64,000 nt of DNA. Origin: a bacterium. Lineage in GTDB: Bacteria > Sumerlaeota > Sumerlaeia > SLMS01. Positions 4,859 through 48,896 of this stretch are shown here, piece after piece. The stretch covers positions 101-64,100 of the forward strand of contig WGMQ01000030.1 of the NCBI GenBank assembly GCA_016125005.1. Direction: 5' to 3'. The notes beneath the pieces are model-generated. The model was not told where the DNA came from, ran no database searches, and saw only the letters and a list, made by a program, of their open reading frames with translations. Position 1 is the stretch's first letter, and each line of letters opens with the position of its first letter. Position numbers and translations under genes: made by a program.

Positions 4859-6718
4859 ATGATCCTCTCGCCCCGCCTCCGCGCCCGATGCGCCCGCCTG
4901 CTCGAATGGCTTCCAGCCCTCGTAGTGCTGCCATTTCTGGCGGTGCTATGGGTCAGTGTCCTCGGTCGCGTGGGTGTCCGGTGGGAGCTTGAGTGGAACG
5001 AAGGCCAGTCCGTCGAGCAGGCTTGGCGATTCGCCGCGGGCCTCCCCCTCTACCCAAAGGTCGCCGACGGCTGGGTGCCGTACATGTACGCCCCACTTTA
5101 TCATATGCTGCTGGGACTGGGGATGCGATGGACCTCAGTCGATGCGCTTCCGCTGGGGCGCTTCCTGTCGGTGCTGGGGATGGTCGCGGCCCAGTGGGCA
5201 GTCTTTCAGATCGTTTATGATAGGACCCGGCGGGCCTCGGCGGCACTTTTTGCGGTGGGATTGACCGCCATTTGGTACAAGGCATCCGGACTTTCCTGGG
5301 ATTTGGTCCGCGTCGATGGGCTGGCGATCGGCCTCGCGATGGTCGGCTTGGCGATCCTCGCCAGGCCCAGGCGCTCTGACAGTGCGGTTATCGTTGGGAT
5401 GCTGGTGCTGGCGCTGGCGGTGCTGGCCAAGCAGAACCTCGGCCTGCTGGCGGTTGCCTGCACGCTGCAACTGGTCTTCCTCCGCCCAAGGGCCACGATC
5501 CTCGGCGGGGCGCTCGTGGGTTTCCTCGTCATAAACTTCGTGTTCCTGATGATCGTGAGCGGAAACAGCGAGTTCCTCAAGTACACCGTAACCAATGCAA
5601 GCCACCACCTGAGCCGTCACGACGTCTTCTTCCCCGGGGCCTTCTACCCCGACCGCTTCCGCGCCGAGCTTCCTGATGGCGTTGGCTGGTTCGGTACCCT
5701 CGACGCATACATCGCGCTCTGGCTGGACAAGGGCCCGCCTGAGGTCTGGAAGGAGTTCGTGCGCCACTGGGCGCTGACCCTCGGCATTCCCGGGCTCGCG
5801 CTCGCCTGGTCAGTCCTCCGGCGGAGGCGGGCTCACTGGTGGTTCTTTATGCTCCCCGTGGCCGCGCTGCTGGCCGGGGCGATTACCGCGTGGGCGAAGT
5901 TTGGGGGTTTTAGCAACAACTTCCTCCCGTTCTACGTTGGCTGGGCCATCCTCCTGAGCCTCTGCGCGGAATGGCTGCGGCGCCAGACGACCGGGCTCAT
6001 GCGCATGGCGATTCCTGTCACCGTGGCGGCGCTGGTCCTGCTCCAGATCGTCCAGCCCTGGGCTCTTCCTGACGCAAAGGACGAGGTGACGCGCTACGTT
6101 CTCGCCGACAAGGAAGGGGACGTGCAGGCTCGCTCTCTGGTGCTGGAAACGGGAGTCCGTCGCATGCGCCCGCTGACCGCGGGCGATGGGGCACGACCGC
6201 TCCCCTGGTGGGCCGATGCCTATTACGACGTGTCTCGGATCGAATCAGCCGGACTGCTCTGGCTACCCTCCCGGACTTGGCCGGCGCCGGACTCCGATCT
6301 CGCCTTCGCGGCGCTCGGCAAGTGGCTGGACGAACGCCGGGCTCTCGGTGAAAACGTCTGGGTAATGCACCATCAGTGGTATGCCATGCGCCGGGGACAC
6401 CCCGCGGTGATGAACGTCGACATGGCCCGCTGTGCGGAGTGGGCTGGCGACCCCATCCCACCTCAGTTGCTCGACAAGATCAGCGACGGCGGCTTCCAGT
6501 GGATCGTTCTGGATATGGAGGACATCACCTACGAGTGGCTCCCCTTGGGTGTTCGCCAGCGGATCCAGGCCGGGTATCAACCGATCGGGCCCGTCCCGGG
6601 TCTGGCCCCTTTCGTGGGGACCAACGCGCTGCTTCCCACGACCGGGGCGCGGATGCGGCCCCTTTACGCCTGGCGCAGCAATGCGCTTGCGGCGCCCGAC
6701 ACCCAAGGGTCGGATTGA
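4859..6718 (+). CDS. polytopic membrane protein, GT-C (ArnT/PMT-like) glycosyltransferase candidate
   Basis: Start moved to ATG 4859 (MILSPRLRARCARLLEWLPALVV). It has many hydrophobic helices followed by a soluble C-terminal domain. The first loop EWNEGQSVEQAWRFAAGLPLYP resembles GT-C enzymes. The family call rests on architecture only. Confidence 0.55.
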   Translation: MILSPRLRARCARLLEWLPALVVLPFLAVLWVSVLGRVGVRWELEWNEGQSVEQAWRFAAGLPLYPKVADGWVPYMYAPLYHMLLGLGMRWTSVDALPLGRFLSVLGMVAAQWAVFQIVYDRTRRASAALFAVGLTAIWYKASGLSWDLVRVDGLAIGLAMVGLAILARPRRSDSAVIVGMLVLALAVLAKQNLGLLAVACTLQLVFLRPRATILGGALVGFLVINFVFLMIVSGNSEFLKYTVTNASHHLSRHDVFFPGAFYPDRFRAELPDGVGWFGTLDAYIALWLDKGPPEVWKEFVRHWALTLGIPGLALAWSVLRRRRAHWWFFMLPVAALLAGAITAWAKFGGFSNNFLPFYVGWAILLSLCAEWLRRQTTGLMRMAIPVTVAALVLLQIVQPWALPDAKDEVTRYVLADKEGDVQARSLVLETGVRRMRPLTAGDGARPLPWWADAYYDVSRIESAGLLWLPSRTWPAPDSDLAFAALGKWLDERRALGENVWVMHHQWYAMRRGHPAVMNVDMARCAEWAGDPIPPQLLDKISDGGFQWIVLDMEDITYEWLPLGVRQRIQAGYQPIGPVPGLAPFVGTNALLPTTGARMRPLYAWRSNALAAPDTQGSD

Positions 6719-44052: not shown

Positions 44053-44877
44053 TCAGGAAAACAGGTCATCGGACTCGGGAAGGGAAAGTGGCTGCCCGGC
44101 CATCTCCGCAAAGACCATCGCATCGAGGATCGCGTTTCCATCGGGGTGATTGTTGAAGAAGGCGAGAGCCGTGGTCGCATTCTCGGCCGCATCCCGAATC
44201 ACTGGTACCCACGGCCTCAGTTCCCCCTGTGCGTAGCGATAGCGATAGCGGTCGCTTCCCGACGGGCTATCCCTGCCGTACCAAGTCTCGCCGTTGCGGC
44301 CGTGGAAACGGAAGTAGGCCAGCGGGCCGGTCTGTCTATACCGCGAGGACTGGGAAAGACCGCGCAGTGCTGGCTGGTCGATGGCCACGCGGGAGACGGC
44401 AAGGTCGCGCAGGAAGCCATCGGCCTCGTCCGTATCCCACGATGAATGGCGCAGCTCCACGGCGAGTGGAATGCCCGCGAGGCATCCGAAGATCTGCTGC
44501 ATCTTCTGCCGATCGGAGAGCGTGTTTCGCAGCGCATTCGGGAACTGGAGGAGAACCGCCATCAGGACTCCGGCCTCGCGGAACGGCGCCAGATACTCGA
44601 GAAACGGGTGCACCGTAGCGGAATCGGTCAGGCCGCGATGGGTCATGTCGCCCGGCGCCTTGATGGAGAACGCAAGCCGCCCTCCCGCATCGCGCACCTT
44701 GCGCCGCGCGGACTCCCGCTTCGGCGTGCCGTAGTAGGTGGCGTTGATCTCCAGCGCTCGGAAGACACCGGCGTAGTAGTCGAGCCGATGCGCCGTCGTG
44801 ACGTGTGGCGGATAGAACACGCCGCGCCAGTCGTCATATGCGTAGCCTGACGTACCGATGAGGAGCGGACCTGGCAT
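44053..44877 (-). CDS. DUF72 (UPF0759, YecE-like) protein
   Basis: Start moved to ATG 44877. MPGPLLIGTSGYAYDDWRGVFYP and LDYYAGVFRALEINATYY are present. The ATG shares its A with the polB stop (TGATG). Confidence 0.8.
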   Translation of the reverse strand: MPGPLLIGTSGYAYDDWRGVFYPPHVTTAHRLDYYAGVFRALEINATYYGTPKRESARRKVRDAGGRLAFSIKAPGDMTHRGLTDSATVHPFLEYLAPFREAGVLMAVLLQFPNALRNTLSDRQKMQQIFGCLAGIPLAVELRHSSWDTDEADGFLRDLAVSRVAIDQPALRGLSQSSRYRQTGPLAYFRFHGRNGETWYGRDSPSGSDRYRYRYAQGELRPWVPVIRDAAENATTALAFFNNHPDGNAILDAMVFAEMAGQPLSLPESDDLFS

Positions 44878-47216
44878 CAGGCAAGGCTCCCGAACAGGTC
44901 GGGCTGTATAGACGTGGTGCACACGGACCTGGCGCTCTTCTTCCGTTCCGGTGGTGCCCACGGCGGACGGACCTTCTTCTCGTCCAACTCAATGCCGCCG
45001 GGCCACAGCAGCGTATTCATGGCGCGGCGCAGCAACCGAATGTTCGCCACGGGATCGGCGGTGGTTTCGTGATCGATGAGTGCCTTGAGTCGCACGCGGC
45101 GGGAACGATCCTGATCGTCGGATGACGTGAGCACATAGGAGAGCGACTCGCCCGCATGGAGGTTCATTCCCGCAGCCACCGACTGGCGCGCGGCAAGCGA
45201 CTGGGCTCCGTTGCCGGTGTAGTCCTCGGGATCCTGCGAGAGGGACTGCCTGATGACGAGGTCGTCGAGCGGTACCTCATGGCGCCAGAGCGCGCCTTCC
45301 ATCTCGGCGATACGATCAAGCAACGTGGGCACCATCGCCCGGTAACCCGCTGCATCAGGGGGCTTGGCCAACTCGCGCAGCAACTCAAGCTGGGCGTTCT
45401 TCACATAGAGCGGCAGGTCGTGGCGACGGCACTCGATGCCGCGATACTTCACCGAGCCATCGCGAAATGCCCCGAAATAGCGCGTCGGAACGGGCATCTC
45501 GGGGTTCTGGCGCGAAGGGAGAAACGCTAGCCACTTGTATATACCCTCCAGCGCGATGGGCAGGCCGGTCACCTTCTGGATCTCCTCGCATAGCACCGGG
45601 ACTTCCGCGTCCTGAAACCCCGGCTTCACAATCCACACACAGTCGACATTCGCGTGGATCATGCGCCAACCACGTTCCTCGCAGACCTCGCGGGCCTGCA
45701 TCAGGATCTCGCGCGAATAGGCCGACACCGCCTCGTGGGCCTCGATACGACCGAAGCGGGCGTTGCGATAGCCGAGGTAACCGAAGCAACAAACCAGCAT
45801 CCACTTGAGCGCATCCTGTCGCGCATCCCAGCGCGCGTAGGCCACCGCGTCGCCAGCCTCCTTCGCCAGCTTGCGCAGGCGCTTGAACTCGACCCGCTTG
45901 GCGATGATCGGCGTGAGGGAACGGGACACAAGACCCGCGCGTTTCTCGCAGATTGTATAGTCGATCTGCGGCACCGTTCGGTTGCTGCAACAGGGGCAAT
46001 TCACCGTCTCCGGCGAGACGTTGAAGCGGGACATGATGCTCGGGTACATGGCGACGAAATCCAGCTCGACGACGTTCTCATGGAAGCCTGTTTCCGGCGC
46101 ATAGACAATACCGCCCCGGTCCGCCTTCAGCAGTTGACGCGCGCTCTTCCACGCCTCGGGCTGCGTCTTCTTCCACGGAACCAGAAAGCCCTCGCGCCAG
46201 GCGTGATCGAGCTGGATCGAGGAAATGCCCGTGCCGATGCTGCGCCGCGCGATACGCTGGATGGGGATGCGCGAGAGACGGGCAACCTCGAAGAGGCCAT
46301 CCATGCCATCGTGCGAGAGCGCGAAGGAGTTCTTGCGATCCAGATGCCAGCGCCCGCGCAGCGCATGTTCCGGCGCCTGGTACAGGATCTTGCCGTAGGA
46401 AAAGTACGAACGCCCCTCCGTCCTGGCCTCGCGCGGCGGCGGCTCGTCGCGATCCAGCCGGATCGGAAAACGCATCCGCTGTGCGAGTGTATAGACAAGC
46501 GGGAACAGGAACGAATCGCCACTGTCCGTCAGCAACACATCCGGGTCCAGATCGTCGAGCGCCCGCTGAAACCCCGCCAGCAGCTCATACGGATCCTCCC
46601 AGGTCAGCACGCGCCCCTCGCACTCCATCGTCAGCGAACGAAGCTCTGTGCGCTTCTCATGTAATGTCCCCTCGCCACGCAACTCCGCCACACGCAACGG
46701 CGGCGTGGCGTACTGCGTCAGCCAACGATCGTCACCTTCCTCCCGCGCCAGCGACAGCAACCGCCCGCCCTCATGCTCCACGCGACAACGCATCAGCGGA
46801 TAGACATCGCGCTCGAAACCGTACACCTGCTCCGCCAGCAAGTCCGCGTTGTACCATGAGAGTAGCGGAAACTTGTCCGCATGACGATCCAGCGCACGGC
46901 GCCACGTTTCGATGCGCAGGAGCCGGAACGCGAACACACGACGGGGCTCGCCCGTCCAGAAGTCGCGGCGCTCCATCCACCCCACCGGCGCCGCATCGCG
47001 CGCCTTCTCCATCACGCGAGCACAGCCCGCCACGTCCTCCTCCGGACCATCGACAAACACCAGCGGCTCGAACGGCTCCACCAACCGCAGGCGCTCGCCA
47101 TCGTCGGTAATGAACCAGAGCACCACCGCATTGCCGACGGCGTGGTAATCGAAGAGCCAACCGGTCGCGTTCACGGCGCGCAAAATCCAGTGGAAATACG
47201 ACGCGAAGCATGGCAT
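44877..47216 (-). CDS. polB: family-B DNA polymerase, Pol II-like, with degenerate exonuclease and altered polymerase motifs
   Basis: Start moved to ATG 47216, giving 779 aa. Motif A is VVELDFVAMYPSIM, motif B is ALKWMLVCCFGYLGY and motif C is MIHANVDCVWI. The Exo I/II regions read PPLRVAELRGEGT and DPDVLLTDSGDSFLFPLVYTLAQR. Confidence 0.85.
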   Translation of the reverse strand: MPCFASYFHWILRAVNATGWLFDYHAVGNAVVLWFITDDGERLRLVEPFEPLVFVDGPEEDVAGCARVMEKARDAAPVGWMERRDFWTGEPRRVFAFRLLRIETWRRALDRHADKFPLLSWYNADLLAEQVYGFERDVYPLMRCRVEHEGGRLLSLAREEGDDRWLTQYATPPLRVAELRGEGTLHEKRTELRSLTMECEGRVLTWEDPYELLAGFQRALDDLDPDVLLTDSGDSFLFPLVYTLAQRMRFPIRLDRDEPPPREARTEGRSYFSYGKILYQAPEHALRGRWHLDRKNSFALSHDGMDGLFEVARLSRIPIQRIARRSIGTGISSIQLDHAWREGFLVPWKKTQPEAWKSARQLLKADRGGIVYAPETGFHENVVELDFVAMYPSIMSRFNVSPETVNCPCCSNRTVPQIDYTICEKRAGLVSRSLTPIIAKRVEFKRLRKLAKEAGDAVAYARWDARQDALKWMLVCCFGYLGYRNARFGRIEAHEAVSAYSREILMQAREVCEERGWRMIHANVDCVWIVKPGFQDAEVPVLCEEIQKVTGLPIALEGIYKWLAFLPSRQNPEMPVPTRYFGAFRDGSVKYRGIECRRHDLPLYVKNAQLELLRELAKPPDAAGYRAMVPTLLDRIAEMEGALWRHEVPLDDLVIRQSLSQDPEDYTGNGAQSLAARQSVAAGMNLHAGESLSYVLTSSDDQDRSRRVRLKALIDHETTADPVANIRLLRRAMNTLLWPGGIELDEKKVRPPWAPPERKKSARSVCTTSIQPDLFGSLA

Positions 47217-47249
47217 GATCGTTCCACTTTCAGGCAAGGAGCCTCGGCC

Positions 47250-47477
47250 ATGACCACTCCGCTTCTGGACAAAGCCTTCGCCAAGGCCAGCGCCCTCCCC
47301 GCCGACCAACAAGACGCGATTGCCGAACTCGTCCTGGGCGAACTGGCTTCGGAGGAGCGTTGGGAGCGCCAGTTCGAGAAATCACAGGATACCCTTGAGG
47401 CACTGGCAGACGCAGCCCTCGCGGAAGATGCACACGGCAGGACACGCCCGTGTGGTTCCGGATCCGCTAGGAACTGA
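47250..47477 (+). CDS. small antitoxin-like protein (orphan, no toxin partner)
   Basis: ATG 47250 has AAGGAG 8 nt upstream. MTTPLLDKAFAKASALPADQQDAIAELVLGELASEERWERQFEKSQDTLEALADAALAE closely follows a small-protein family I remember from cyanobacterial addiction-module loci. The last ~12 aa diverge. Confidence 0.5.
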   Translation: MTTPLLDKAFAKASALPADQQDAIAELVLGELASEERWERQFEKSQDTLEALADAALAEDAHGRTRPCGSGSARN

Positions 47478-47493
47478 AGAGAGTCACTCGCGT

Positions 47494-47760
47494 TCACGGC
47501 GCCCGTTCCTCCCGCAACGATTCGACCTCTGCCGAAAGCCGCTCCAGTTCCATCTCCTGCTCCAGCAGGATCGCCATGACCAAGGCATCAAACGGGATCG
47601 GACGTGCCGCGCAGGTCGCCTCTGCCGTGTGCCTGCGGGCTCGCACGAACAGACGGTCAAACGCCGGACGCTGCTCCGCCCTCAGGCCCCGCCGGAACTC
47701 CTTCCACGAATCGATCTCCTCCTGAAGCCAGGTATTGAAGGTAGGAAGCGTCCGCCCCAT
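47494..47760 (-). CDS. hypothetical 88-aa helical protein
   Basis: ATG 47760 has GAGAGG 7 nt upstream. The sequence is MGRTLPTFNTWLQEEIDSWKEFRRGLRAEQRPAFDRLFVRARRH ... EQEMELERLSAEVESLREE. Third-codon-position G+C is 28/35 in the part that overlaps the upstream gene. Confidence 0.5.
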   Translation of the reverse strand: MGRTLPTFNTWLQEEIDSWKEFRRGLRAEQRPAFDRLFVRARRHTAEATCAARPIPFDALVMAILLEQEMELERLSAEVESLREERAP

Positions 47761-48352
47761 CGTTGCACCTCTCGATCTGAAAATCCCAGTCATCGCCCTG
47801 GGCACGCGTCCGCACCCGCACATCTCCGAACTCCAGCATCGGTCGCCACCACGCCTGGTCCCGCGGCACCGATTCATGCGTCACCAACAACGACGCCCCG
47901 TGGCGACGCGGCGCTTCCAGGTCCGCCAACACACCCCCCAGCACCCGCGCCCGCTCCGCCGCGCGCAGCGACTCCTCCAGGAACAGGTGATCCAGCCCGA
48001 GCACCCCGATGGCCGGCGGGGCGCCCCCCTTCAGGTTCAGGAGCGGCGGCACCATCTCCCGCGTCACCGCCGCCAACTGATGGATCGTGAAGCACCGCGT
48101 GACAAAGACCCGATCCAGCACATCCTCCCGCAAGCCTCGCCGCCGAGCCTCCCGCGCGAAAACATACGGATCGAACCCGTTGGCCCCATCCACGATGTAA
48201 AGCCTCCGATCCTCCGGCAGGAACACCGGCGCCAACCGACCCAACACCATCGCCGTGGCCCGACGCGGCGCCTCCAGCACCAGCGCCTGCCCCCTCCGCC
48301 GAACGGCGGAGACAGGACGCATGACAGATGGAACAAATGGCTCGGTCGACAT
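47657..48352 (-). CDS. RecA-fold protein without P-loop (ImuA/SulA-like pseudo-ATPase candidate)
   Basis: Start set at ATG 48352. The strand-helix pattern runs LYIVDGANGFDPY, VFVTRCFTIHQL, PAIGVLGLDHLF (Walker-B-like) and ASLLVTHESV. There is no GxxxxGK[ST]. The last 34 codons overlap the next gene and have G+C at the third position in only 17/34. Confidence 0.45.
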   Translation of the reverse strand: MSTEPFVPSVMRPVSAVRRRGQALVLEAPRRATAMVLGRLAPVFLPEDRRLYIVDGANGFDPYVFAREARRRGLREDVLDRVFVTRCFTIHQLAAVTREMVPPLLNLKGGAPPAIGVLGLDHLFLEESLRAAERARVLGGVLADLEAPRRHGASLLVTHESVPRDQAWWRPMLEFGDVRVRTRAQGDDWDFQIERCNDGADASYLQYLASGGDRFVEGVPAGPEGGAASGV

Positions 48353-48358
48353 GGCGAA

Positions 48359-48388
48359 ATAAAAGCGAAACACGTAAGACTCTGTCAA
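48359..48388 (-). promoter_or_regulatory. sigma70-like promoter placed for a leaderless transcript
   Basis: The minus strand reads TTGACA (48388-48383), an 18-nt spacer, TTTTAT (48364-48359), 6 nt, then ATG 48352. There is no Shine-Dalgarno sequence before that ATG. Confidence 0.35.
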
Positions 48389-48896
48389 GGGCATCCTCAG
48401 GGGCGGCGATGCCGGGGGGCCGGGGGCGCATTTTTGACGGTGTTACCGTCTGAGCCTCTCCTCGGTGCCGGGCACAGTCCCTGTGATGGTGCATGGATGC
48501 TTCGATTCTCCTTCCGCGGTCCCGGTCCGGAAGGCGGGAGTAGTCCCGGGAAGGGTCGGACAGGCGGGGGACCGAGGGCCTCCGACGCGGCATCCTGTGG
48601 GACCCACTACCGGGGTCCGAGCCCCACCCGACTGATGTCCCCACCATGAATGGATGGGGCTACAATTGTTAGGGTCCCTGCCGGGACCGCGGCCGGCGAG
48701 GACCAAGCCGACTTCGATGGCGGGAACAAGGCTGAGATGCTCCCCTTTCGCAGCCTCCCCCCATCGCCCTTGACGGCCCCGGATCGCTCCGGCATTCATT
48801 GTGCGTCGCTTGGATGCCTTTGCAGCCCCGGGTGCAAATCAGCCAGGCGCGGGCCTCGCCCCCGCCCAACCAACACCAAGCAGAGCACCAGCCACG

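Follow-up and report, generated by a model that had tools for sequence, protein, structure and literature searches.

Operons that combine an 'inactivated' family-B DNA polymerase (PolB2/Dpo2) with an alpha-helical protein of about 90 residues (arCOG07300) and an inactivated RadA were predicted by Makarova, Krupovic and Koonin in 2014 (PMC4104785) for archaea and several bacteria, at times together with lexA. Kazlauskas et al. 2020 (PMC7544198) nested the bacterial polymerases (group G2) in archaeal B2 and made the case for a role in translesion synthesis. In 2025, Timinskas, Timinskas and Venclovas (PMC11791011) introduced the names iRadA and PPB2 for the partners, gave the bacterial gene order as solely iRadA-PPB2-PolB2 (in some cases with other genes in between), proposed a heteropentamer model, PolB2:iRadA:PPB2(3), and reported a beta-clamp motif on either PolB2 or iRadA; a 2026 survey (PMC12926913) gives the same account. 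In PMC11791011, lexA (108 of 1823 neighbourhoods), SRAP and DUF72 (119 of 1823) are listed as enriched neighbours. We compare with these systems a locus at 44053-48394 of a 64-kb stretch of hot-spring metagenome DNA (contig WGMQ01000030.1; the whole stretch is hereafter called the window), which holds four minus-strand genes and one plus-strand open reading frame (ORF) and whose proteins all have their nearest homologues in Candidatus Sumerlaeota genomes.

We read this locus, with a probability of roughly 0.85, as a damage-inducible PolB2 translesion operon (iRadA-PPB2-PolB2) with an accessory DUF72 gene; the operon is archaeal in origin and was transferred to bacteria. An initial annotation of the window, made from the letters alone, had seen here a candidate for an undescribed four-gene module. 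All five genes lie where it placed them, in the order and on the strands it gave, and its likening of the locus to the imuA-imuB-dnaE2 logic of damage tolerance or mutagenesis is what PMC4104785, PMC11791011 and PMC12926913 propose as well. The claim of an undescribed system falls, as the iRadA-PPB2-PolB2 core was published in 2014, its mutasome was modelled in 2025 and DUF72 was already a listed neighbour. The module itself therefore adds little, being one more bacterial case of an operon for which about 1800 genomes are on record and detailed models exist. What takes the place of the 'undescribed cassette' is a specific hypothesis, a clamp-tethered iRadA-PPB2(3)-PolB2 complex for translesion synthesis together with a coupled predicted nuclease, DUF72, and the only possibly new element is an operator ahead of iRadA.

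PolB2, its partners and their synteny

The polymerase matches PF00136 in Pfam (E=3e-28), and its best NCBIfam models describe archaeal-type PolB (NF004418, 375 bits), under the curated cut-off. We read its motifs from an alignment with the Thermococcus KOD polymerase and their conservation over 23 homologues, down to 44% identity. In Exo II, NGDNFD of KOD corresponds to SGDSFL in the window, which replaces the catalytic Asp by a Leu (L237) that is near-invariant among the homologues; the N-terminal 200 residues hold no conserved DxE for Exo I (the equivalent stretch, aligned by eye, is LRVAEL), and the Exo III region reads WHLDRK. The Asp of motif A is retained (DFVAMYPS) and motif B has changed (KWMLVCCFGYLGY), while motif C reads HANVDC as against YSDTDG in KOD, with Asn in place of the first catalytic Asp and a His in front. 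Invariant across the 23 homologues are H521, V524, D525, D386 and K471. So is D293 of the D(K/R) motif, which is followed by Arg both in the window (R294) and in the majority consensus (HLDR) and preceded by a conserved stretch comprising G268, S273-Y274-G275, P282 and G288-R289-W290-H291.

Hallmarks described for PolB2/G2 are an Exo I that is not conserved, a missing Exo III, a motif C with one Asp and a His, and D(K/R) (PMC7544198); published PolB2 motif C signatures are HGIVD and HAIVD (PMC11791011). Over the 61-residue segment from motif B to motif C the window protein is identical at 35/61 positions (57%) to two archaeal PolB2, whose sequences were taken from the supplement of PMC11791011, and at 42/61 to a bacterial one, as against 16/61 (26%) for KOD. 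Judged by these motifs and identities, the polymerase is exonuclease-inactive and motif-altered and most probably a PolB2 of bacterial group G2. At its C-terminus (residues 771-775) it carries QPDLF, a beta-clamp-like motif that is shared within the Sumerlaeota clade and rare outside it (13/84). A motif of this kind is missing from the window iRadA, in line with the published pattern of a clamp motif on one subunit or the other.

Residues 406-423 of PolB2 (about 45948-46001) form a near-invariant Cys cluster, NCPCCSNRTVPQIDYTIC (C407, C409, C410, C423); at the aligned positions of KOD there are just two cysteines, those of the disulfide. Possibly the cluster binds a metal, at a site peculiar to this PolB2 clade.

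Pfam and NCBIfam searches with iRadA gave no match. A profile of 30 iRadA homologues, run against PDB sequences, finds Pyrococcus furiosus RadA at E=3.6e-8, and of the 51 PDB matches listed, 48 (the top 48 included) are RadA, Rad51 or DMC1 and none is bacterial RecA. Similarly, the best 50 Foldseek hits in the PDB for an AlphaFold2 model of iRadA are all RadA/Rad51/DMC1-type chains or Rad51 paralogues (template modelling score about 0.55-0.62). The model has a mean predicted local distance difference test score of 82, with most of the core above 90 and a disordered tail; about 25 disordered residues lie ahead of the first core strand, and the N-terminal helical domain is absent. A Walker A motif ([GA]x4GK[ST]) occurs in none of the 30 and none of the 67 family members searched, and the P-loop position reads EAPRRAT. 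Profile, model and missing Walker A together mark iRadA as a catalytically inactive RadA/Rad51-family protein, and by its sequence relationships it descends from archaeal RadA rather than from bacterial RecA/ImuA. iRadA is proposed to attach to PolB2 by a Rad51-oligomerisation-like motif, and in the polymerase alignment the PolB2 loop proposed to bind it is conserved.

The last ~34 codons of iRadA (~104 nt, 47657-47760) run into the PPB2 gene, an overlap also present in L008 and L009 (L numbers denote the loci analysed), and because of this overlap the apparent conservation of the iRadA tail is probably imposed by the PPB2 coding sequence. A programmed frameshift or an iRadA-PPB2 fusion was considered and ruled out, as iRadA and PPB2 are read in different frames and disorder is predicted for the iRadA tail. 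In L009/L010 (5488-5838; 76% PolB identity), iRadA lacks about residues 76-201, that is, the core of the fold, and PPB2 and PolB2 are intact.

The 88-residue helical protein carries a precomputed Pfam label (PF26485, DUF8156); our own Pfam and NCBIfam scans returned no match for it. Its N-terminus reads MGRTLPTF, and MGRT, the four-residue conserved N-terminal arm that defines PPB2 (PMC11791011), is found in 69 of 70 PPB2 genes of related loci. A single-sequence AlphaFold2 model gives helices at 8-24, 31-51 and 57-86 and a free N-terminal arm; with a predicted template modelling score of 0.40, this model was relied on for secondary structure alone. Label, arm and helices identify the protein as PPB2, the partner of PolB2.

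A scan of one genome per species (GTDB) found more than 580 genomes that encode a PolB relative. We analysed the best 80 loci, from about ten phyla, with profiles of our own, and 66 of these loci were informative (at least 1.4 kb of upstream DNA). In 58 of the 66, iRadA and PPB2 lie upstream of PolB on the same strand, and in 31 of these 58 lexA is found directly upstream. DUF72 is present in 10 of the 80 loci, and only three of them (L011, L013, L027) have it immediately after PolB and on its strand. DUF72 is therefore a facultative, enriched neighbour and not a core member, and the 'four-gene module' shrinks to three. Two protein assignments of the initial annotation stand on the evidence above: the exonuclease-dead, motif-altered PolB by the Leu in Exo II, HANVD in motif C and KWMLVCCFGYLGY in motif B, and the RecA-fold pseudo-ATPase by the RadA profile match, the RadA/Rad51 fold of the model and the missing Walker A.

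As for DUF72 itself, the window protein matches PF01904 at E=1.6e-48 (166 bits, cut-off 25.3) and, among solved structures, 1VPQ (TM1631) at E=5.9e-39 and 1VPY at 8e-18. The match to TM1631 (PDB 1VPQ; Konc et al. 2013, PMC3828134) runs nearly end to end, and the endonuclease IV-like repair role of the family is a computational prediction (PMC3828134). DUF72 also follows PolB2 in L013, L027 and L211. PolB2 stop and DUF72 start overlap by one base in the window (TGATG) and in L008/L011, and by four bases in L211, so that in this clade (window, L008/L011, L211) the two genes are tightly coupled. Two tandem DUF72 genes follow PolB2 in L027 (10285-11846; Nitrospirota, lexA upstream). In the closest relative (L008/L011, 4691-7848), type III CRISPR genes (Cmr2/Cas10, Cmr3) lie directly downstream of PolB2-DUF72, a neighbourhood that is probably incidental.

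Set against the published PolB2 mutasome operon, the window shares the three families and their order, the MGRT arm, D(K/R), the motif C His with a single Asp, the loss of the exonuclease site, an iRadA without Walker A and N-terminal domain, a clamp-like motif on one subunit and a DUF72 neighbour. It differs in having a direct-repeat operator in the promoter instead of an adjacent lexA, as well as an antisense 75-residue ORF, a coupled downstream DUF72 and the ~104-nt iRadA/PPB2 overlap; moreover, Sumerlaeota do not appear in the part of the PMC11791011 tables examined. Dpo2 of Sulfolobus islandicus and S. solfataricus is, by its signature motifs, of the orthologous family and is described as a damage-inducible, error-prone lesion or mismatch extender (PMC7544198; PMC7390963, PMC8764526). 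Unlike the window system, however, Dpo2 comes from archaea, depends on PCNA and is under the control of Orc1-2, not of an SOS-type repressor, and its motif C has IID where the window has NVD.

With ImuA-ImuB-DnaE2 the locus has in common an error-prone polymerase, an adaptor of the RecA family that is inactive and, probably, control by the SOS response, and ImuA-like genes share the operator in metagenomes (see below). The polymerase of that system is, however, C-family (DnaE2) and its bridge the inactive Y-family ImuB, neither of which is found in the window locus, so the likeness is one of analogy, not membership. E. coli Pol V (UmuD'2C-RecA-ATP) likewise is a multisubunit translesion polymerase with a RecA-family subunit and a small subunit whose arm reaches to the polymerase, an architectural parallel drawn in PMC11791011; in contrast, its catalytic subunit is Y-family, its RecA is active and comes from the filament, and UmuD has the S24 peptidase fold instead of forming a helical trimer.

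A probable direct-repeat operator ahead of iRadA

Upstream of iRadA the window reads TTGACA-N12-TTTCGCTTTTATTTCGCC-ATG. The operator overlaps the expected -10 element (TTTTAT) and the start-site region and abuts the iRadA ATG, ending one base ahead of it. The resulting spacing, TTGACA-N18-TTTTAT-N6-ATG, is found at equivalent positions in L002, L009, L011 and L211, four loci in which TTGACA or TTGACT lies 11-12 nt ahead of the operator. With this overlap and the operator ending at the ATG, the arrangement suggests that the first operon gene is read from a leaderless, or nearly leaderless, transcript. A strict sigma-70 scan did not find a full promoter here because the -10 position falls within the operator.

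The only perfect match to the operator in the window is the one upstream of iRadA. Allowing at most one mismatch, all nine matches in 1.23 Mb (the loci plus the window) lie directly upstream of iRadA; a copy in L211 was found separately. Among Sumerlaeota loci without an adjacent lexA, the 17-18-bp repeat precedes iRadA in L002, L009, L011, L015 and L211, and degenerate copies are present in L013 and L017. It also precedes iRadA in a Xenobia locus (L024) and in two Acidobacteriota loci (L032, L060), and in these three it fills the spacer between the -35 and -10 hexamers. Counted over loci with iRadA and PPB2 and again with at most one mismatch, the operator stands upstream of iRadA in 4 of 27 lexA-less loci vs none of 31 lexA-linked ones. 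In a Sumerlaeia locus with a stand-alone PolB2 (L016, 7956, minus strand), a two-mismatch copy of the operator, in reverse orientation, precedes PolB2 by ~40 nt.

Metagenome contigs of the Joint Genome Institute, scanned for TTTCGCTTTTNNTTCGCC, gave at least 120 matching stretches, of which 80 loci (L091-L170) were analysed. In 21 of the 80 the match sits exactly between TTGAY and TAnnnT, and 14 further ones have a reversed TTGAC 1-4 nt away. When the 79 ORFs closest to the motif, on one side or the other, were scanned against Pfam, RecA-family/ImuA-like proteins (15), radical SAM (11), Y-family polymerase (6) and LexA (3) were found, together with DinB-superfamily (3), UDG (2), PHP of the DnaE2 type (2) and DEAD-box helicase (2). 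In the three lexA genes the motif lies between their own -35 and -10 elements. This make-up of flanking genes is that of an SOS regulon and therefore supports SOS-type control. Because the motif also stands in lexA promoters, LexA is, by analogy with LexA autoregulation, the most likely protein to bind the direct repeat. In bacteria of the Acidobacteriota, Sumerlaeota and Xenobia type the motif is probably an SOS operator. That it might be just a -10 element or a T-rich stretch arising by chance was considered and ruled out, as in other phyla the motif fills the spacer between clear -35 and -10 hexamers and is met in both orientations.

In contrast to these findings, the initial annotation had held SOS control to be unsupported, having found no Verrucomicrobia-type box (TGTTC-N4-GAACA) near either promoter. 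We agree that this box is missing from both, and its window-wide count is at chance level. The frame of reference was misplaced, however, the closest homologues being Candidatus Sumerlaeota rather than Verrucomicrobia, and the box sought belonged to the wrong phylum, with the operator escaping notice; a different operator occupies the promoter, and the same motif recurs in a lexA-containing, SOS-type regulon of metagenomes.

The half-sites, [T/A]TTC-N7-[T/A]TTC, resemble the GTTC-N7-GTTC direct repeat of alphaproteobacterial LexA (as cited in PMC8565304). We found no description of this operator or of an Acidobacteria LexA box in the literature searched, which does not in itself establish that the motif is new. 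Our joint reading, which we offer tentatively and at somewhat less than even odds, is that TTTCGC-TTTTNN-TTCGCC (18 bp, with a helical turn between its two [T/A]TTCGC half-sites) could be a LexA-type SOS operator not described before, related to GTTC-N7-GTTC and shared by Sumerlaeota, Acidobacteriota and Eremiobacterota-like (Xenobia) bacteria. Through it, the PolB2 operon, gained horizontally from archaea, would in these lineages have come under the SOS regulon of the host with no lexA copy of its own, and the 75-residue ORF, retained between PPB2 and PolB2 in two diverged genomes, would be an added regulatory or partner gene. As a candidate signal, the operator links lexA-less PolB2 operons to a regulon of SOS type in soil and hot-spring phyla that have been little studied and, should the motif prove to be unpublished, SOS regulons would become reconstructable in Acidobacteriota, Sumerlaeota and their relatives.

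Proposed mechanism and rival explanations

In the mechanism that we envisage, DNA damage would relieve a repressor, most likely LexA, from the operator overlapping the core promoter, and the operon would then be transcribed, apparently leaderless or nearly so. PolB2, without proofreading and with a remodelled active site, would join one iRadA and a PPB2 trimer, the N-terminal MGRT arm of PPB2 going between PolB2 and iRadA, and the C-terminal QPDLF of PolB2 would bring the complex to the beta-clamp for error-prone translesion synthesis or extension past lesions. DUF72, coupled to PolB2 translation and predicted to be an endonuclease-IV/UVDE-like TIM-barrel, may process the lesion or its surroundings. 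The architecture of this complex is carried over from AlphaFold models in the literature and the translesion activity from Sulfolobus Dpo2, the only member for which it was measured; LexA as the repressor, transcription across the insertion described below and a lesion-processing DUF72 are what we infer ourselves. To our knowledge, none of the bacterial PolB2 complexes or DUF72 proteins has yet been characterised biochemically.

Several observations weigh against a damage-inducible translesion operon. There is no lexA gene in the window, and PPB2 is parted from PolB2 by ~280-320 nt of insertion, which makes co-transcription of PolB2-DUF72 with iRadA-PPB2 an assumption. PolB2 stands alone, with neither iRadA nor PPB2, in 7 of the 66 informative loci, and the close relative L009 has the internally deleted iRadA mentioned above, so the partners are not strictly obligatory neighbours. 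Position 9 of PPB2 is Asn, where the literature notes a conserved Arg. Finally, the complex is known only from the AlphaFold models in the literature.

The insertion comprises ~315 extra bases between PPB2 and PolB2 and is essentially the antisense ORF. It is absent from L011 (83% PolB identity), L009 and L002; the PPB2 stop overlaps the PolB2 start in L011 and L009 and is about 35 nt away from it in L002. The more distant L211 (PolB 74% identical) has the insertion at the same place, with a 74% identical ORF (5001-5222). Being shared with this distant locus and absent in closer relatives, the insertion is either old and repeatedly lost or was transferred. No match to the 75-residue protein was found in Pfam, NCBIfam, PADLOC, PHROGs or, by tblastn, plasmids. 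It has, besides itself, 16 homologues, none with a Pfam domain, and those elsewhere (L212-L215) lie among toxin-antitoxin genes such as BrnA, HepT/MNT and PemK. The plus-strand orphan gene of the initial annotation hence keeps its position and strand and loses its orphan status: it belongs to an uncharacterised small-protein family outside the canonical operon, for which variants with interspersed genes are documented. No terminator-like site is predicted within the insertion, so that read-through into PolB2-DUF72 is possible. Nor was a second operator found there upstream of PolB2; one candidate, CTTCGCGTCGTATTTCC, was rejected for its weak likeness and too many mismatches.

An insertion of this kind, with its opposite-strand ORF, gives some ground for seeing two units, namely an SOS-controlled iRadA-PPB2 pair and a separately transcribed PolB2-DUF72, with DUF72 as an unlinked general repair gene. 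Stand-alone iRadA-PPB2 pairs do exist in some archaea (PMC4104785), and DUF72 is absent from 70 of the 80 related loci and varies in position and orientation where present. We nevertheless regard this arrangement as rather improbable. PPB2 abuts or overlaps the PolB2 start in L011, L009 and L002, the insertion offers no predicted terminator-like site, the interrupted layout is kept in L211 at 74% PolB identity, and the DUF72/PolB2 stop overlap (one base in the window and L008, four in L211) speaks for linkage, as does the finding that 10 of 80 loci with DUF72 is, by a rough estimate, tens of times what chance would give for a 16-kb window, an enrichment also noted in the literature. Two-unit transcription would, in any case, leave the protein identities unchanged.

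Compared with this, an anti-phage or conflict system, in which the polymerase would synthesise DNA for defence, with the RecA-like protein and DUF72 as sensor and effector, is very unlikely. What could be cited for such a system, which the initial annotation had allowed as an equal alternative, is the operon beside type III CRISPR Cmr genes in L008, the homologues of the small inserted ORF in toxin-antitoxin-rich islands and a PolB without proofreading. PADLOC, however, finds no match to any known or candidate defence-system protein, its one hit being PolB to the 'HEase' homing-endonuclease model over the polymerase region, which we discounted; the flanking genes are housekeeping genes that vary between genomes, and the commonest neighbour is lexA (31/58). 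In addition, the promoter motif is part of a regulon with lexA, imuA-like, dnaE2 and dinB-type genes, and the archaeal orthologue acts in damage tolerance by experiment (PMC7544198). Least likely of all, and barely credible to us, is a polymerase module of replicative or mobile-element type (resembling casposons, pipolins or plasmids) in place of a chromosomal repair operon. Bacterial family-B polymerases do often reside on mobile elements, and PHROGs DNA-polymerase families match PolB, yet the PHROGs matches are generic polymerase matches and families of unknown function only; no integrase, terminal repeats or replication partners are nearby, there is no compositional break over the region, a dead exonuclease with an altered motif C is atypical for replicases, and the operon turns up in varied chromosomal surroundings across more than 580 species genomes. 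All three explanations fit the evidence less well than a translesion operon does.

Feature coordinates and gene calls

Features of the PolB2 locus, in window coordinates
Feature	Position	Strand	Description
-35-like hexamer TTGACA	48383..48388	-	operon promoter, read directly
Direct-repeat operator TTTCGCTTTTATTTCGCC	48353..48370	-	[T/A]TTCGC repeated with period 11; putative SOS (LexA-type) box
iRadA	47657..48352	-	231 aa from conserved ATG; ORF extends to 48394
PPB2 (arCOG07300 / Pfam DUF8156)	47494..47760	-	88 aa, three helices, MGRT arm
Antisense ORF	47250..47477	+	75 aa, in ~315-nt insertion between PPB2 and PolB2
PolB2 (bacterial group G2)	44877..47216	-	779 aa as called
DUF72 TIM-barrel (TM1631-like)	44053..44877	-	274 aa

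For iRadA we take the ATG at 48350-48352 as the real start in place of that of the ORF as called (47657-48394), because homologues support it and the conserved DNA motif ends one base before it. The PolB2 start that aligns with those of relatives is a GTG at 47172-47174, which would give 765 residues and is probably the homologous one. A search for RNA evidence found the sequence solely in DNA metagenome runs. On the identical public contig, the automatic call (L001, 1072-1845; 47874-48647 of the window, minus strand) is a different, low-complexity and non-conserved frame. The iRadA frame chosen in the initial annotation is the conserved one, recurring in the nearest relative (74% identity) and in another 29 homologues.

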